Virus record (IMG/VR): IMGVR_UViG_3300020041_000038
Span: 1 to 6,060 of that record
Strand: one strand, 5' to 3'
Length of the DNA: 6,060 bases
Origin: a virus
In this document: piece by piece, positions 1,901 through 5,797 of the stretch
Position numbering within the stretch: position 1 is the stretch's first letter
Layout: each line of letters begins with the position of its first letter
Made by a program: the position numbers and the translations under genes
The notes under the pieces: model-generated
Told to the model about the DNA's origin: nothing
The model's database searches: none
Seen by the model: only the letters and a program-made list of their open reading frames with translations

Positions 1901-1935
1901 CTCCCCGGGGAGTTTTCCTCCCCTGGGAGTTTTTT
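1901..1935 (+). terminator. Rho-independent terminator
   Basis: ctccccggggag (1901..1912) pairs with ctcccctgggag (1918..1929) across the loop ttttc (1913..1917). This gives 11 bp, mostly G:C, with one C/T mismatch (1906/1924), followed directly by TTTTTT (1930..1935). It sits just after the last ORF of the VP2 block. Confidence 0.8.
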
Positions 1936-1947
1936 GCTCTCGAACTC

Positions 1948-2081
1948 ACCGAATTTATTCGGTATATAGATTCGCGAAGTGAGCCATGGAGCTCGAAGAC
2001 GCGCAGCGTCCCGGCCGTTAAGGCCGTCGAGCGGCGTAACGAAGCAGTTTTCGCGCTCGAAAGTACCGTCTTTCGAAGCGC
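1948..2081 (+). other. Cluster of stable stem-loops in noncoding DNA; candidate ssDNA replication or priming element
   Basis: Pairings traced by hand. (a) 1948..1963: accgaa/ttcggt, 6 bp, loop ttta. (b) Palindrome ttcgcgaa at 1971..1978. (c) A three-way junction at 1991..2032: outer stem gctcga/tcgagc (1991..1996 with 2027..2032) encloses hairpin gacgc-gca-gcgtc (1998..2010) and hairpin cggcc-gttaa-ggccg (2012..2026), leaving only two unpaired junction bases. (d) 2053..2081: gcgctcgaaag/ctttcgaagcgc, 11 bp with one bulged A, loop taccgt. There is no ATG-initiated ORF here. Confidence 0.6.
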
Positions 2082-2099
2082 ATAATAACGTTTTCGGAT

Positions 2100-2300
2100 A
2101 TGGATTATTTTGACTTTCGACCTAGATCTTCTCCAATAATTGACTGCGTTTCTTACCGCTACTCCGTTGGCGCATATCGCGGCAAAAATCGAATTGTTAT
2201 TGCTTGGTTCGCCGACGAGGCCTCCGCTGAAGATTATCTCACTCGGTGTCGCCTCGAGAGGCCTTATATTAAGTTTGATTGCCTTCAAAGCCTATTTTAA
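2100..2300 (+). CDS. Hypothetical 66-aa protein whose stop overlaps the Rep start
   Basis: ATG at 2100. The stop TAA at 2298..2300 shares its last base with the VP4 ATG at 2300..2302, giving a TAATG overlap. It fills the gap between the structured noncoding tract and VP4 exactly. The composition is non-repetitive and globular-looking (YSVGAYRGKNRIVIAWFADEASAEDYLTRC). Confidence 0.5.
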   Translation: MDYFDFRPRSSPIIDCVSYRYSVGAYRGKNRIVIAWFADEASAEDYLTRCRLERPYIKFDCLQSLF

Positions 2301-3370
2301 TGCCTTGTTCATCACCCATATGGATACGTAATCGTCGCTATTTTGACAAAAAGAATCCTTGTCGAAATGGTTCTGACGTTGCTAAGTCTGCTTTAGCTCT
2401 TCGTCCCTGGGACATTGCCCGCCAATGGTTAATGGTCCCGTGCGGAAAATGCGAGGACTGCCTGCGTCGCCAGCGTAATGATTGGTTCGTGAGACTAGAG
2501 CGTGAGCTTGCCCGTTGCAAGGCGGATAGCCTACAGGCGATATTTATTACCATTACGATCGCCCCTAAGTATTATGACGAAGCGTTACTTGACCCCTCTA
2601 AGTTTATTCGACGATGGAATGAACGCGTCCGTCACACGCTTGGACATTCTTTCAAGCACGCGTTTTTTCAAGAGTTTGGTACTCATCCGGAAATAGGCTC
2701 AGAGCCTCGTCTACATTTCCATGGTTTTTTGTTTGGCACCAACTGTTTGTACAACGATATTCGAGTGGCCGTCCGCGACCTTGGCTTTGTTTGGCTAGCA
2801 AAGGCTACCCATAAGCGTGCTCGTTATTGCGTTAAGTATGTTACTAAACAGATTCAATTCAACCCCGAAGACGTTTCGGATAAATATGTTACTGTAAATG
2901 GAAATCTTACACCTTTATCTTGCCTCCTCCAACATCGCCGCTATACGCGAAAATTCATATCTGCTGGCGTTGGTGATTTTCTTGGCTATATGCCTCGGCC
3001 TTCTGCTCGTATTTCGTCGTGGTCTTATTTCGATTTTGAGAAGCGTATCAATTATAATTACTCGATTCCTCGATATTACCTTAGATACCTTAAACAAGAA
3101 GACGAAGTTTCACGTTCGATTGCTGCTGCTGACTCTTACGCACGTTTTAGCAAGTCTCCTTTGGTTAAACGTATTGTGTCTTTGTGTGTTGAGCGGTTCA
3201 ATCTCAATTCCGCCGTATCCCGTAGAGAGGCATATACGTGGGAACTGAAGCAGATAATGCGTTTTTCTGCATCCTCTCGCAAGCTACCCGATTTTGATCC
3301 CCCTACTTGGTTAGATTTGGATATTCTTCAATTCTGGCAAGATCATTACAAACTTCAACTAAACATTTAA
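2300..3370 (+). CDS. VP4: Replication initiation protein VP4 (HUH rolling-circle endonuclease, phiX174 gene A-like), 356 aa
   Basis: Start chosen at ATG 2300 (MPCSSPIWIRNRRY...), which fits the usual microvirus VP4 N-terminus. The track start at 2279 is a TTG. Motifs seen: Cys cluster CGKCEDC (2441..2461), motif 1 FITITI (2543..2560), HUH motif LHFHGFLF (HFH at 2714..2722), and a two-tyrosine motif YCVKYVTK (Tyr codons at 2825..2827 and 2837..2839) with the Y-x-x-K-Y spacing of phiX174 protein A. Stop is TAA at 3368..3370. Confidence 0.92.
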   Translation: MPCSSPIWIRNRRYFDKKNPCRNGSDVAKSALALRPWDIARQWLMVPCGKCEDCLRRQRNDWFVRLERELARCKADSLQAIFITITIAPKYYDEALLDPSKFIRRWNERVRHTLGHSFKHAFFQEFGTHPEIGSEPRLHFHGFLFGTNCLYNDIRVAVRDLGFVWLAKATHKRARYCVKYVTKQIQFNPEDVSDKYVTVNGNLTPLSCLLQHRRYTRKFISAGVGDFLGYMPRPSARISSWSYFDFEKRINYNYSIPRYYLRYLKQEDEVSRSIAAADSYARFSKSPLVKRIVSLCVERFNLNSAVSRREAYTWELKQIMRFSASSRKLPDFDPPTWLDLDILQFWQDHYKLQLNI

Positions 3371-3373
3371 TTT

Positions 3374-5164
3374 ATGGGAAAACAGCCTTTTATTTCTCAT
3401 GCCGTAAATGGCTACTCTCGATACGACGTTCCCGAGAGTAAAGCCTTTACTTGCACGCCGGGTATTTTGTATCCAGTGCGCATTGATTTTGTTAACGCCC
3501 GTGACCGCGTATCTATTGAGCAAGGCATCGATGTTCGTAGCAACCCGCTCGCTGTCCCAACCTTTAATCCTTTCACTGTTCGGCTCCATCGTTTTTACGT
3601 GCCGCTTCAGTTGTATCATCCTGAGTTGAGGACGAACAGCAGTAAATTTGATATGAACAATCTAAGCTTGAACTTTATTGCCGCTTCCACTACCGGTTCA
3701 TACGAATACACGACCGACAACTACCCTTACTCTAACTCGTTGCTTCGTTGGCTACGTGTCGTTCCCGCATCTATTCCGACTCCGACTTCGAGTAACGTAC
3801 CAGTGTCCCCCAGCCTCACGGCAGCTCAGTTGTCGTATCCCTTAGGCTGGTGCAATGCCGACACTTATCTTGCTTACTGGGACATCGTTCGTAATTATTA
3901 TAGCTATTCTCAGTGGGGCCTTTATTCCTTTGCTTGGCCTTCTAGCTGGTATTTTATTCCCAATTCTACCGGCACTGCGTATAATGTCCCTCAGTTTAGT
4001 GAGAAGGCGGTGTTTTTTAGTCAGAGGTTTGGCAATCTTGAGTTTTTGGACGCATTCTTCGAGAGTCAGTTTTACCCTTCGTCCGTAACTTCTCCGAATA
4101 ACACGTATAATCGAGGGAACCTCTTCTCGCAGGTGCTTTTGTCTGATCTTGGTGCTACAATCACCGCCTCTAAGGACGGTTACCCCGTTTCTACTATTTA
4201 TCCTGGAAACACGACGTTGACGACCGCCGGTCCCGCAGGCCAATTTTCTACCACCGCCGCTAACACGACCGTTACTACTCTTGGCGCCTTCCTCGTCGCT
4301 CATCCGATGGCCGTCGTGCCCTCGAATCCTGATCGTTATAGCAGGTTGCTTCCTGTCGGCTCTTCCGAAGGGGTTTCGATGACTGGCGTGTCGACCATCC
4401 CTCAGTTAGCCATTGCTTCTCGTCTTCAGGAATACAAAGACCTTCTCGGTGCTGGCGGTAGTCGTTATAGTGATTGGCTGGAAACGTTTTTTGCCTCTAA
4501 AATCGAGCATGTAGACCGCCCCAAGCTTCTCTTTAGCGCCTCGCAGACTGTTAATGTGCAGGTTATCATGAATCAGGCTGGAACTGGCAATTTCAGCGGC
4601 CCAAATGTTACCGGTTCTCTTGGTCAGCAGGGTGGCGCTATCGCTTTCAACGAGCGTTTAGGTCGGCGGCAGTCTTATTATTTCCGCGAGCCTGGTTATA
4701 TCATTGATATGTTGAGCATTCGACCCGTTTATTACTGGGCCGGCGTTTATCCTGACTATCTCCACTATACCGGTGCTGACTACTTTAATCCCATCTATAA
4801 CGATATTGGATATCAGGACGTTCCGGGATTCCAGTTTGGCTTTGGAACCACATCTGCCTCGGAGACTGTGGCTTATGAGCCTTGTTTTAACGAGTTTAGA
4901 TCTTCTTATGACGAGGTTCTTGGTCAGCTGTCCCGTTTTCAAACTTCAAAAAGTCAGATTCCCCTTTACGCTTATTGGGTACAGCAACGCGTTTTGTCCG
5001 CAAGCTATAATGCATACTACTCTCTCCTGTTTACGGATATGGGTCAGGTTAATTCTCCATTCGCGTCTAACTCGGAGGATAACTTCTTTGTCAATCTTTC
5101 GTATTCCATTCAAAAGAAGAATTTGGTTAACAAGACCTTTGCTACTCGTTTGTCTAATCGCTAA
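3374..5164 (+). CDS. VP1: Major capsid protein VP1 (protein F family), 596 aa
   Basis: This is the longest ORF, with ATG at 3374 three nt after the VP4 stop. It has segments characteristic of microvirus F/VP1 proteins: an N-terminal block SRYDVPESKAFTCTPGILYPVRIDFVNARDRVSIE, then PFTVRLHRFYVPLQLY, RLQEYKDLLGAGGSRYSDWLETFF, GYIIDMLSIRPVYY, EPCFNEFRSSYDEVLGQL, and the C-terminal FFVNLSYSIQKKNLV. A poorly conserved-looking S/T/N/P/Y-rich central region fits the variable surface insertion. Confidence 0.95.
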   Translation: MGKQPFISHAVNGYSRYDVPESKAFTCTPGILYPVRIDFVNARDRVSIEQGIDVRSNPLAVPTFNPFTVRLHRFYVPLQLYHPELRTNSSKFDMNNLSLNFIAASTTGSYEYTTDNYPYSNSLLRWLRVVPASIPTPTSSNVPVSPSLTAAQLSYPLGWCNADTYLAYWDIVRNYYSYSQWGLYSFAWPSSWYFIPNSTGTAYNVPQFSEKAVFFSQRFGNLEFLDAFFESQFYPSSVTSPNNTYNRGNLFSQVLLSDLGATITASKDGYPVSTIYPGNTTLTTAGPAGQFSTTAANTTVTTLGAFLVAHPMAVVPSNPDRYSRLLPVGSSEGVSMTGVSTIPQLAIASRLQEYKDLLGAGGSRYSDWLETFFASKIEHVDRPKLLFSASQTVNVQVIMNQAGTGNFSGPNVTGSLGQQGGAIAFNERLGRRQSYYFREPGYIIDMLSIRPVYYWAGVYPDYLHYTGADYFNPIYNDIGYQDVPGFQFGFGTTSASETVAYEPCFNEFRSSYDEVLGQLSRFQTSKSQIPLYAYWVQQRVLSASYNAYYSLLFTDMGQVNSPFASNSEDNFFVNLSYSIQKKNLVNKTFATRLSNR

Positions 5165-5175
5165 TACTTACTCTT

Positions 5176-5472
5176 ATGCCTCTTGATTGGTTATTGCAGG
5201 ATGCTCCTGCCTATGTTTCTCGCGGTCAGCGTATCCTTTCGGTTCTCGACGGTTCTGGCACTGTTGACGTCCTCCCTGGTCGTCCGGATGTAGTGGTAGA
5301 GCCTTCTGACTTCGATAAGGGTGAAAAGTTCAACCCTGAGATTGATTTTGATCCTAATTCCTTCTCTCGCATGGATAAGTTCGACGGCCTCGAGGTTGGT
5401 CAGGAACTTATTGATTCAGAGTTGGATAGATCGAAGCCTGCTCCAAAAACCCCTAATCCTGAAGAAAAATAG
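5176..5472 (+). CDS. Hypothetical acidic 98-aa protein; weak candidate for an internal scaffolding-type protein
   Basis: ATG at 5176, 11 nt after the VP1 stop; TAG at 5470..5472. By hand count it has about 21 D/E against about 11 K/R. It is rich in D, F and P (EPSDFDKGEKFNPEIDFDPNSF) and has a Pro/Lys-rich tail. The functional label rests only on position and charge. Confidence 0.5.
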   Translation: MPLDWLLQDAPAYVSRGQRILSVLDGSGTVDVLPGRPDVVVEPSDFDKGEKFNPEIDFDPNSFSRMDKFDGLEVGQELIDSELDRSKPAPKTPNPEEK

Positions 5473-5605
5473 TACACTCTTTACTTGACGATATATGCTA
5501 CGTGCGCGGACCCCTTCGCCGAGAGTTCGTGAATCGTTGAAGGTTATTGGTAACGACTGCCGGAGAGGCCGCGCATTTTTCTATCGTTCTTTAAATTTTG
5601 TCCCT

Positions 5606-5797
5606 ATGTCTGACACTAAGCCATCTTTTTATAAGTCGAAGGCTTTTTGGACGCTTGTTTCGTCTATAGTCGCCGCATTAGCTGCTTTTTTTCTTGCCTC
5701 GTGTTCGGCGCAGGCTAAAGTTTACCGCAACGGTGTTCATATCGACACTGTCCGTGTAGATTACGTCGTTCGTTCGAACAATTTTTCGCTTCCGTAG
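5606..5797 (+). CDS. Small predicted lipoprotein, 63-aa precursor with a mature part of about 31 aa. Candidate lysis/release or superinfection-exclusion factor
   Basis: From ATG 5606 the product is MSDTKPSFYKSK-AFWTLVSSIVAALAAFF-LASC-SAQAKVYRNGVHIDTVRVDYVVRSNNFSLP. That is a Lys-containing n-region, an uninterrupted hydrophobic h-region, and a canonical lipobox L-A-S-C with Cys at residue 33. TAG at 5795..5797 lies one base before the VP2 ATG. The alternative upstream ATG at 5495 would add an Arg-rich 37-aa extension running through a structured intergenic tract and would bury the signal peptide, so I consider it less likely. Confidence 0.6.
   Translation: MSDTKPSFYKSKAFWTLVSSIVAALAAFFLASCSAQAKVYRNGVHIDTVRVDYVVRSNNFSLP

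Follow-up and report, generated by a model that had tools for sequence, protein, structure and literature searches.

The site at which host enzymes begin the complementary strand is known for the coliphages phiX174 and G4, but has essentially not been defined for the dominant microviruses of gut viromes. GNA mini-hairpin motifs have been placed at the priming sites of G4, St-1 and alpha3, at ssiA of RSF1010 and at the single-stranded DNA (ssDNA) promoters of N4, and a GC-clamped GNA/GNNA mini-hairpin has been proposed to resist single-stranded DNA-binding protein (SSB) and to mark the primase entry site (PMC13037366). In rolling-circle plasmids, the single-strand origins (sso) are orientation-dependent elements, folded on the displaced strand, of ~150–200 nucleotides (nt; about 160) that vary in position, fall into several classes, contain a conserved 6-nt loop, limit host range and behave like cassettes (PMC5703833, PMC8860593). 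At an sso of the ssoA type, primers are made by RNA polymerase, and ssDNA accumulates when the sso is lost. Hairpins upstream of Rep in the small reekeekee- and roodoodoo-microviruses have tentatively been proposed as a minus-strand initiation site (PMC9865509). The stretch analysed here, IMG/VR record IMGVR_UViG_3300020041_000038 (the window, 6060 bases), is a single circular microvirus genome, 5939 nt long and terminally redundant by 121 nt, and its + strand carries all of its genes. Upstream of orf66 and the Rep gene VP4 lies a folded noncoding cassette of 137 nt (1945–2081), made up of a hairpin (A), a three-way junction (Y) and a second hairpin (H). This cassette is a new, covariation-supported, horizontally exchanged element of gut microviruses that would work most like a single-strand origin.

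Like the sso types (ssoA, ssoU, ssoT, ssoW, ssoL), the cassette is a folded element of ~140–190 nt whose folding is significant and supported by covariation. It likewise occurs in several structural types (Y, an alternative element Z, and a junction inside the upstream hairpin module T), takes variable positions relative to rep, is non-essential, is exchanged between replicons that share a host and has a conserved 6-nt loop. It differs from the sso in having no RSB or CS-6 consensus and no sequence similarity to PLSDB plasmids, in being carried by a Bacteroidales microvirus rather than a Firmicutes plasmid, and in consisting of a hairpin, a three-way junction and a second hairpin instead of one long imperfect palindrome. 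The CS-6 consensus is TAGCGT/A, and the cassette loop reads TACCGT. With the primase-dependent complementary-strand origins of G4, St-1 and alpha3 (hairpins I–III), the cassette has in common an intergenic cluster of hairpins on the (here presumed) viral strand of a microvirus and a GC-clamped GNA/GNNA mini-hairpin. In contrast to them, it has a true three-way junction and is dispensable and horizontally exchanged; BLAST of the tract gave no sequence homology to these origins, and no CTG start site was identified in the cassette. The PriA site (n' site) of phiX174 is also structured intergenic DNA on the viral strand, but it is a single ~55-nt hairpin without sequence similarity to the cassette. 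PriA binds branched substrates, which a three-way junction might resemble. The reekeekee- and roodoodoo-hairpins resemble the cassette in being intergenic and near Rep, with compensatory substitutions and a conserved loop. However, they are one or two simple hairpins conserved vertically within a clade, whereas the cassette is multi-modular, includes a three-way junction, exists in alternative versions, is present in some genomes and absent from others, and has been transferred from clade to clade. No match was found in Rfam 15 at E values up to 1 for the window and five relatives carrying the Z, alternative-junction and H3 versions.

An initial annotation of the window had described positions 1936–2099 as a hairpin-dense noncoding tract with four structural elements, each of which can be read from the sequence where it had been placed. 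Hairpin A (1948..1963, + strand) has 6 base pairs (bp), ACCGAA(TTTA)TTCGGT, and at its 3' foot the alignments contain the motif GGTATATAG (1961..1969, +). The 8-nt palindrome TTCGCGAA (1971–1978) is present as described; it is not conserved in relatives and is probably incidental. The 5' flank of Y, CGAAGTGAGCCATGGA (1975..1990, +), is conserved and unpaired, with invariant columns. Module Y itself (1991..2032, +) is a perfect three-way junction, GCTCGA-A-GACGC(GCA)GCGTC-C-CGGCC(GTTAA)GGCCG-TCGAGC, in which 16 bp hold 32 of the 42 nt. Its stem P1 pairs 1991–1996 with 2027–2032; P2 pairs 1998–2002 with 2006–2010 and is closed by a G-N-A triloop, forming a GCGNAGC mini-hairpin; P3 pairs 2012–2016 with 2022–2026 around a GTTAA loop. 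GCC at 1983–1985 is able to pair with GGC at 2033–2035, but these three pairs never vary and so carry no covariation information. The linker GGCGTAACGAAGCAGTTTTC (2033..2052, +) is conserved and predicted to be unpaired, with many invariant or nearly invariant columns, and leads to module H (2053..2081, +), an 11-bp hairpin with a bulged A, GCGCTCGAAAG/TACCGT/CTTTCGA(A)GCGC. The AT-rich leader that follows (2082..2099, +) belongs to orf66 and not to the cassette, because relatives without the cassette have it too. Versions of the cassette with Z are about 185 nt long.

Folding was computed as DNA and compared with 200 dinucleotide shuffles. The tract 1936–2099 gave z = -2.88, with 2/200 shuffles as good, and the extended tract 1856–2099 gave z = -4.10, with none as good. 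Hairpin A (z -4.70), Y (z -3.02) and H (z -3.50) each folded better than all 200 shuffles, and the centroid structures are exactly these elements. The claim that the tract folds unusually well therefore holds for the tract as a whole and for its single stem-loops (z -3.0 to -4.7), and so does the claim that it is richer in GC, with a GC content of 0.52–0.55 compared with 0.35–0.40 in the spacer 1117–1199. Its start had been placed too far downstream. A small J-like open reading frame (ORF) codes as far as 1892, which accounts for the conservation of 1856–1892, so that the noncoding tract truly begins at 1893. It includes a further strong hairpin just ahead of 1936, module T (1901..1935, +; z -4.35, 0/200 shuffles), a GC-rich stem-loop CTCCCCGGGGAG/TTTTC/CTCCCCTGGGAG followed by TTTTTT. 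With a GC-rich stem-loop and a T-run on the coding strand, module T resembles an intrinsic terminator; hairpins A, Y and H have no T-run. A scan with a terminator consensus did not list module T, owing to its internal mismatch.

Covariation was assessed in an alignment of 34 diverse cassettes (A3), with 500 shuffles as control. Canonical pairs fill 97.4% of the pair cells, compared with 92.0% in shuffles, 10 pairs show double (compensatory) changes, and the covariation score is 0.184, compared with 0.083; none of the 500 shuffles equalled the alignment in any of these measures. When the partners were slid by 1–3 columns, pairing fell to only 26–41%. In hairpin A, double changes occur at four of the six pairs (for example, AU in 18 cassettes and GC in 15). 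In Y, where 100% of the cells are paired, P1 has pairs of the types CG24/GC9/AU1 and CG18/UA16, and P3 has one of the type GC23/AU8/CG3. The pair between columns 121 and 140 in H is UA28/GC5/CG1. P2 has the form GAC-GCGNAGC-GTC, in which the G and A of the triloop do not vary, whereas each of the four bases occurs between them. On the complementary strand, loops of this type would read T-N-C, and their conservation thus points to the sense strand and suits DNA better than RNA. The inner stem of H, CGAAAG/CTTTCG, and its 6-nt loop TACCGT (rarely TACCGC) are nearly invariant, and its outer stem exists in at least four compensated versions in metagenomes (GCGCT../..AGCGC, GCCG../..CGTGCGC, CTC../..GAG and CCGGCCTTT../..ATTGGCCGG). 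Invariant positions also include G23, T24 and A25 of the alignment, in the motif at the 3' foot of hairpin A, and TATATA or TAAATA stands ahead of Y or Z in every clade, even the clade without hairpin A. The hairpins are kept by compensatory evolution, and their structure is under selection; purifying selection is strong on pairing, loop and linker in several clades. Shuffled folding and covariation among relatives were the two computational checks proposed in the initial annotation, and the tract passed both.

The relatives examined comprise 9 GenBank genomes and 80 IMG/VR genomes, the 80 having 87–92% identical VP4 and having been retrieved independently of H. In these genomes, the spacer that separates the J-like ORF from orf66 is built of modules: T is followed by A (hairpin plus TATATA), by Y or Z, and by H. 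The order of the modules is fixed and their combination variable, and H travels with Y or Z in fixed order and orientation. Module Z is an alternative multi-stem element of ~100 nt that is unrelated to Y and takes its place. The 80 VP4 relatives carry Y and H (48 genomes), Z (9), another junction (6), Y only (4), H and Z (1), H only (1) or no module (11). Hairpin H is absent from 30 of them, all with intact Rep, and genomes without modules at this locus have none elsewhere, so that the modules have not been relocated. Clean deletion derivatives were also seen: L070 equals L053 minus A and Y, and hairpin A is collapsed in L086. No direct repeats, target-site duplications or terminal repeats were found at the junctions of these derivatives. 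Module T is present in all relatives, and 70 of 96 pass a crude terminator rule (hairpin of at most -7 kcal/mol plus a T-rich tail) with 61 distinct stem sequences. In some relatives (6 of the 80) its loop is expanded to a three-way junction of ~65 nt with two GAA-triloop mini-hairpins, GCGAAGC and CCGAAGG. This junction was seen in eight relatives, and in MG945790 its outer stem is wholly replaced and yet paired (relatives listed with module T or the expanded junction are L005–L012, L014, L039, L077 and L083). Single-nucleotide indels and the gain and loss of whole modules among relatives show that the region is not translated, as the initial annotation had held. The same indels and module turnover led to the rejection of two ORFs that cover it, neither of which has a family: 1873–2085 on the + strand and a 165-amino-acid minus-strand ORF at 1791–2288.

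Several further observations concern single modules. The exact 18-mer of H occurs in 74 IMG/VR contigs. About 400 extra nt follow H in L091, and L214 has two copies of H 2654 nt apart; such insertions and partial tandem duplications directly after H suggest that its 3' side is a breakpoint of recombination or assembly. The core CGAAAG-TACCGT/C-CTTTCG was also seen with further, unrelated extended stems in the metagenome contigs L168, L195, L206/L243 and L241, and the H hairpin may be used beyond the clades studied here. The unpaired motifs that flank Y, CGAAGTGNAG and CGAAACGTAG, resemble imperfect direct repeats (A3 columns 38–47 and 100–110), and their positions are exchanged in the metagenome variants L219 and L255.

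The cassette was also found in phages that are only distantly related to the window. The A, Z and H modules of L133, a close relative of the window, are 94.3% identical over 156 nt to those of MG945515 (L013), where they lie on the opposite strand. VP4 identity is ~29% for MG945515 and 27% for another clade carrying A, Z and H (the L100 clade); the cassette is therefore common to phages whose Reps are 27–30% identical. Members of the L100 clade occur both as a circular genome (L100) and integrated in contigs of Alistipes (Rikenellaceae), and a gene flanking the prophage is 97% identical to an Alistipes chromosome (members compared: L165, L139, L163, L190, L176, L217, L198 and L225). From this related prophage clade, Alistipes or another member of the Bacteroidales is the likely host. 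Metagenomes contributed many more members of the inverted MG945515 clade, with Y and with Z versions, further representatives of the Alistipes-prophage clade, and some of a clade whose H stem differs. Depending on the clade, the cassette lies upstream of orf66–VP4, after VP2 and a terminator, or immediately upstream of VP4 but antisense to it. In both forward clades it lies outside the coding units, with a terminator-like hairpin immediately upstream, and in the Alistipes-prophage clade it is followed by ~500 nt of other noncoding DNA. The cassette is thus modular, accessory and exchanged between distantly related microviruses, and its presence beside very divergent Reps speaks for a host factor as the recognising partner and against a role as Rep origin.

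Searches beyond these phages returned little. BLAST of the tract against 50,697 phage records matched only the microviruses MG945664 and MG945515, neither of which belongs to the G4 or phiX174 groups, and BLAST with the full Z+H and A-Y-H versions gave no plasmid match among 72,556 PLSDB plasmids. A host or plasmid source of the cassette was considered, and the sole weak match, a Skermanella IS91 gene (E 0.04), was attributed to chance. A scan of 185,579 species genomes found the exact 20-mer of H four times, always within a gene, and no prophage relatives of the window clade were found in GTDB genomes with the window VP1. In the L100 clade, the attachment site attP is ATTTAACATAATGAATAGTATTATAT, a canonical dif-like site present as a direct repeat of ~24 nt at both junctions. 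A textbook promoter of the Bacteroidetes type (TTTG...TACATTTG) was noticed near this attachment site.

The orientation of the cassette follows compositional skew and not gene direction. Its sense strand is the coding strand in 96 unique contigs and the non-coding strand in 13, those of the MG945515 clade. None of 111 unique contigs has an A-rich sense strand (T minus A ranges from -0.007 to +0.199), and in nearly all of them this strand is clearly rich in T. The coding strand of the inverted clade has 36% A and 17% T. At fourfold degenerate sites, base frequencies are T.46, C.29, G.13 and A.12 in the window, T.50, C.29, G.14 and A.07 in L100, and T.09, C.18, G.28 and A.46 in MG945515, which is a near-exact mirror of the window. 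Five VP1 relatives of MG945515 (44–59% identity), from sources including rodents, flamingo and Antarctic cryoconite, have the same reversed skew. Throughout this lineage (L013 (MG945515), L101, L115, L128, L173, L186, L203, L234 and others; L261–L265) the coding strand is rich in A (34–44%) and poor in T (16–18%), with fourfold A of.33–.65 and T of.06–.15. A preference for NNT codons has been described as a signature of the encapsidated strand in ssDNA phages (PMC3278643), and it is shown by phiX174, Chp2 and SpV4. Taken together, these data would be explained most simply by a cassette that acts on the strand which is single-stranded for part of the time, and by packaging of the anti-coding strand in the MG945515 lineage. 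It is possible, though doubtful, that the cassette marks the encapsidated strand and that this lineage consists of negative-sense Microviridae, which would package the strand complementary to their mRNAs; literature searches found no report of such polarity for the Microviridae. If orientation truly reports the packaged strand, polarity could be assigned purely from sequence, and the cassette would point to a microvirus lineage of opposite polarity.

Taken together, these properties tentatively suggest that the cassette is an accessory, sso-like signal at which the host initiates the complementary (minus) strand, with a function analogous to that of plasmid sso and of the G4-type origin hairpins. 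Of the three functions offered in the initial annotation, complementary-strand origin or priming site is the best supported, because the fold is strand-specific with GNA loops, is shared across differing Reps, is dispensable and exchangeable, and is oriented with the T-rich strand; the third, a Rep origin, is not supported. The cassette would act as ssDNA, with priming as its putative activity. In such a mechanism, it would fold on one DNA strand, the T-rich and presumably encapsidated one, where an SSB-resistant mini-hairpin junction and H would flank conserved single-stranded stretches (GGTATATAG, GAAGTGNAGCC and GGCGTAACGAAACAGTTTTC). Hairpins and single-stranded stretches together could offer host priming enzymes a place to land and to start, and recognition would be by the priming machinery of the Bacteroidales host, be it primase, RNA polymerase or a PriA-type primosome. 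Incoming and progeny strands might then be converted to the replicative form more rapidly. The cassette is a candidate backed by covariation, its module boundaries are clear, deletion and swap variants of it occur naturally, and a likely host is at hand, which makes it concrete enough to be tested; sso-like behaviour would mean that replication signals determining host range move between unrelated microviruses.

Several points weigh against this interpretation. Eleven of the 80 close relatives are without every module, so the cassette is not the sole minus-strand start and would be accessory or redundant; module T, the junction inside T or the block at 5473–5605 could serve partly the same function. 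A protein that recognises its sequence in duplex DNA would also account for the near-invariance of loop and linker. By nearest-neighbour energy, the antisense strand folds about equally well (-50.7 vs -52.9 kcal/mol), and energy asymmetry between the strands was discarded as an uninformative test. Mismatches in the stems are G.T in 22–30 cells as against A.C in 4, an excess that could be explained by C>T mutation pressure instead of selection on one strand and is weak strand evidence only. That the T-rich strand is the packaged one is an inference from skew, and the isolated gokushovirus phiMH2K has an A-rich coding strand (fourfold A.47, T.24) without being a clean mirror image, which also weakened an A-rich coding strand as proof of negative sense. 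Finally, only about four clades are independent, and agreement of orientation with skew among them would arise by chance about 1 time in 8 to 1 in 16.

Among the other explanations, a passenger role is somewhat unlikely. The cassette would then be a recombination-hotspot or selfish element, or have an ssDNA role other than priming (a packaging aid, a shield against nucleases or SSB, or an anti-defence decoy), and would be kept by exchange between co-infecting microviruses. Its patchy distribution among genomes with 87–92% identical VP4, the way in which A+Y, H and Z come and go independently of one another, leaving clean deletion derivatives, its near-identity across very divergent phages and its occurrence in both orientations relative to genes are all consistent with such a role. 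Yet the strong purifying selection on pairing, loop and linker indicates a function that benefits the carrier, the junctions show no target-site duplications or terminal repeats, no transposase is associated with the cassette, and no copies were found in plasmids or in bacterial genomes, where the H 20-mer occurs only inside genes. An IS200/IS605-type element or a miniature inverted-repeat transposable element was rejected on the same grounds, as there are no host-genome copies beyond the chance in-gene matches and no direct repeats at the junctions. It is unlikely that the cassette acts as RNA, either as a 5' leader that controls expression or mRNA stability of orf66–VP4 or as a small RNA with its own promoter at the TATATA box. 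The position directly upstream of orf66–VP4 in the window clade would suit a leader; in all clades TATATA precedes the conserved block by 8–12 nt, the cassette strand of the inverted clade offers the reading TTGATA-N16-TATATA, and G.U-tolerant covariation is equally compatible with RNA. However, the neighbouring genes differ by clade, the cassette is antisense to every gene in the MG945515 clade, and Rfam gave no match. Bacteroidales promoters use TAnnTTTG, which is present elsewhere in the L100 intergenic region and not at the cassette; relatives do not conserve the -35-like hexamers, and promoter-like sites show no enrichment. In addition, GNA triloops with a free middle base are a signature of DNA mini-hairpins. 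A sigma-70 promoter at 2057–2086 was considered and dropped: it scores 9/12, 8 such sites were found where 7.1 are expected, and its -10 element is not conserved.

Hairpin H, perhaps together with the linker, could also be an operator that works as duplex DNA, its palindrome being bound by a dimeric protein of phage or host that regulates the orf66–VP4 operon. H is indeed an 8–11-bp inverted repeat with a 6-bp centre and a nearly invariant sequence, it overlaps the weak sigma-70-like match at 2057–2086, and orientation is irrelevant for a palindrome. An operator is nonetheless quite improbable: the outer stem varies in sequence (four variants) while its pairing is kept, as is usual for a folded strand but not for base-specific contacts to a duplex; near-invariance extends to the asymmetric loop TACCGT, which would go unread by a symmetric dimer; H and its partner, Y or Z, move as one unit whose order and orientation are fixed; and the -10-like CATAAT is not conserved. 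Very unlikely is an origin of viral-strand synthesis for Rep (VP4), or its termination site, with a nick in or beside a hairpin. The cassette adjoins the rep gene in two clades, origins of HUH Reps are often hairpins, and the cassette keeps one orientation with respect to the presumed viral strand. Against this stand the 30 of 80 relatives that have an intact, 87–92% identical VP4 and no H, the 11 with no module at all, and the occurrence of the cassette in phages with 27–30% identical Reps while near-identical ones are without it. Since modules are missing genome-wide from relatives with intact Rep, the cassette is not an essential Rep origin. Moreover, no phiX-type CAACTTGATATTAATAAC-like sequence and no phiX/pC194-type nick sequence (CTTGATA core) occurs in the tract, and a better candidate throughout the clade lies at 5473–5605. 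The sole phiX-like nick site in the window, CTTGATATTA at 886 inside VP2, was set aside as it is not conserved in relatives. Hardly credible, finally, is a dif-like XerC/D attachment site for lysogeny, a 28-bp type of site which the 11+6+11 geometry of H might recall, Alpavirinae-type and gokusho-type prophages having been reported to use dif-like sites (PMC3091885). The junction repeat of L165, L139 and L163 is ATTTAACATAATGA... and corresponds to 2531–2554 of L100, ~500 nt from the cassette, whose H lies at 3081–3098, and for this prophage clade a role of H as the site is refuted. The arms of H are unlike the dif consensus, and the only dif-arm-like match in the window, with 2 mismatches, is at 2264 on the minus strand. 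Furthermore, the exact H 20-mer is found only the four in-gene times given above, and window VP1 led to no prophage relatives.

The cassette is not the only long gene-free stretch of the window, as had been claimed for it. A second noncoding block at 5473..5605 (+), far more widely conserved, contains CTTTACTTGACGATATATGCTACG, followed by a GC stem GCGCGG...CCGCGC and a T-run. It is present in 113 of 121 genomes with indels that are not multiples of 3, and the interval 5460–5605 shows ~75–90% identity across 60 GenBank microvirus records with hardly any other alignable sequence, in each case on the + strand. The block does not fold significantly (z -0.69). It is a candidate Rep origin, promoter or small RNA and, conserved throughout the clade, a better candidate for the Rep origin than the cassette.

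The remaining features of the window are its genes, all on the + strand. The pilot protein VP2 runs from 5799 across the junction to 1116, and is followed by orf106 (1200–1520), orf107 (1532–1855) and, in another frame overlapping the end of orf107, the J-like basic ORF of 24 amino acids (1818–1892; MKARRKKKSRGTKVVTRPLGGRVL). This product resembles the J/VP8 DNA-binding proteins and, judged by its sequence, is probably one of them; its frame is kept in relatives, where changes are synonymous or conservative (CCT>CCC, CTT>CTA, TGA>TAA, R>K). It carries no annotation in related GenBank records. Downstream of the cassette lie orf66 (2100–2300), a conserved small protein without a family match whose stop overlaps the VP4 start, VP4/Rep (2300–3370; PF23343, phrog_942), VP1 (3374–5164; PF02305, phrog_514) and orf98 (5176–5472). 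A small membrane protein is annotated as a 100-amino-acid ORF at 5495–5797, the first 37 codons of which overlap the conserved block. Because its homologues in distant clades align only to residues 43–97, its real start is probably the ATG at 5606, which would give ~63 amino acids. The gene order VP4–VP1–...–VP2 agrees with the Bacteroidales-associated (Alpavirinae-type) layout (PMC3091885). Nearly all other relatives conserve orf66, but MG945664 (L004; 5990–6039) and L059 have a deletion in its place, and the gene is therefore dispensable; MG945664 still keeps the cassette, which is thus independent of orf66.

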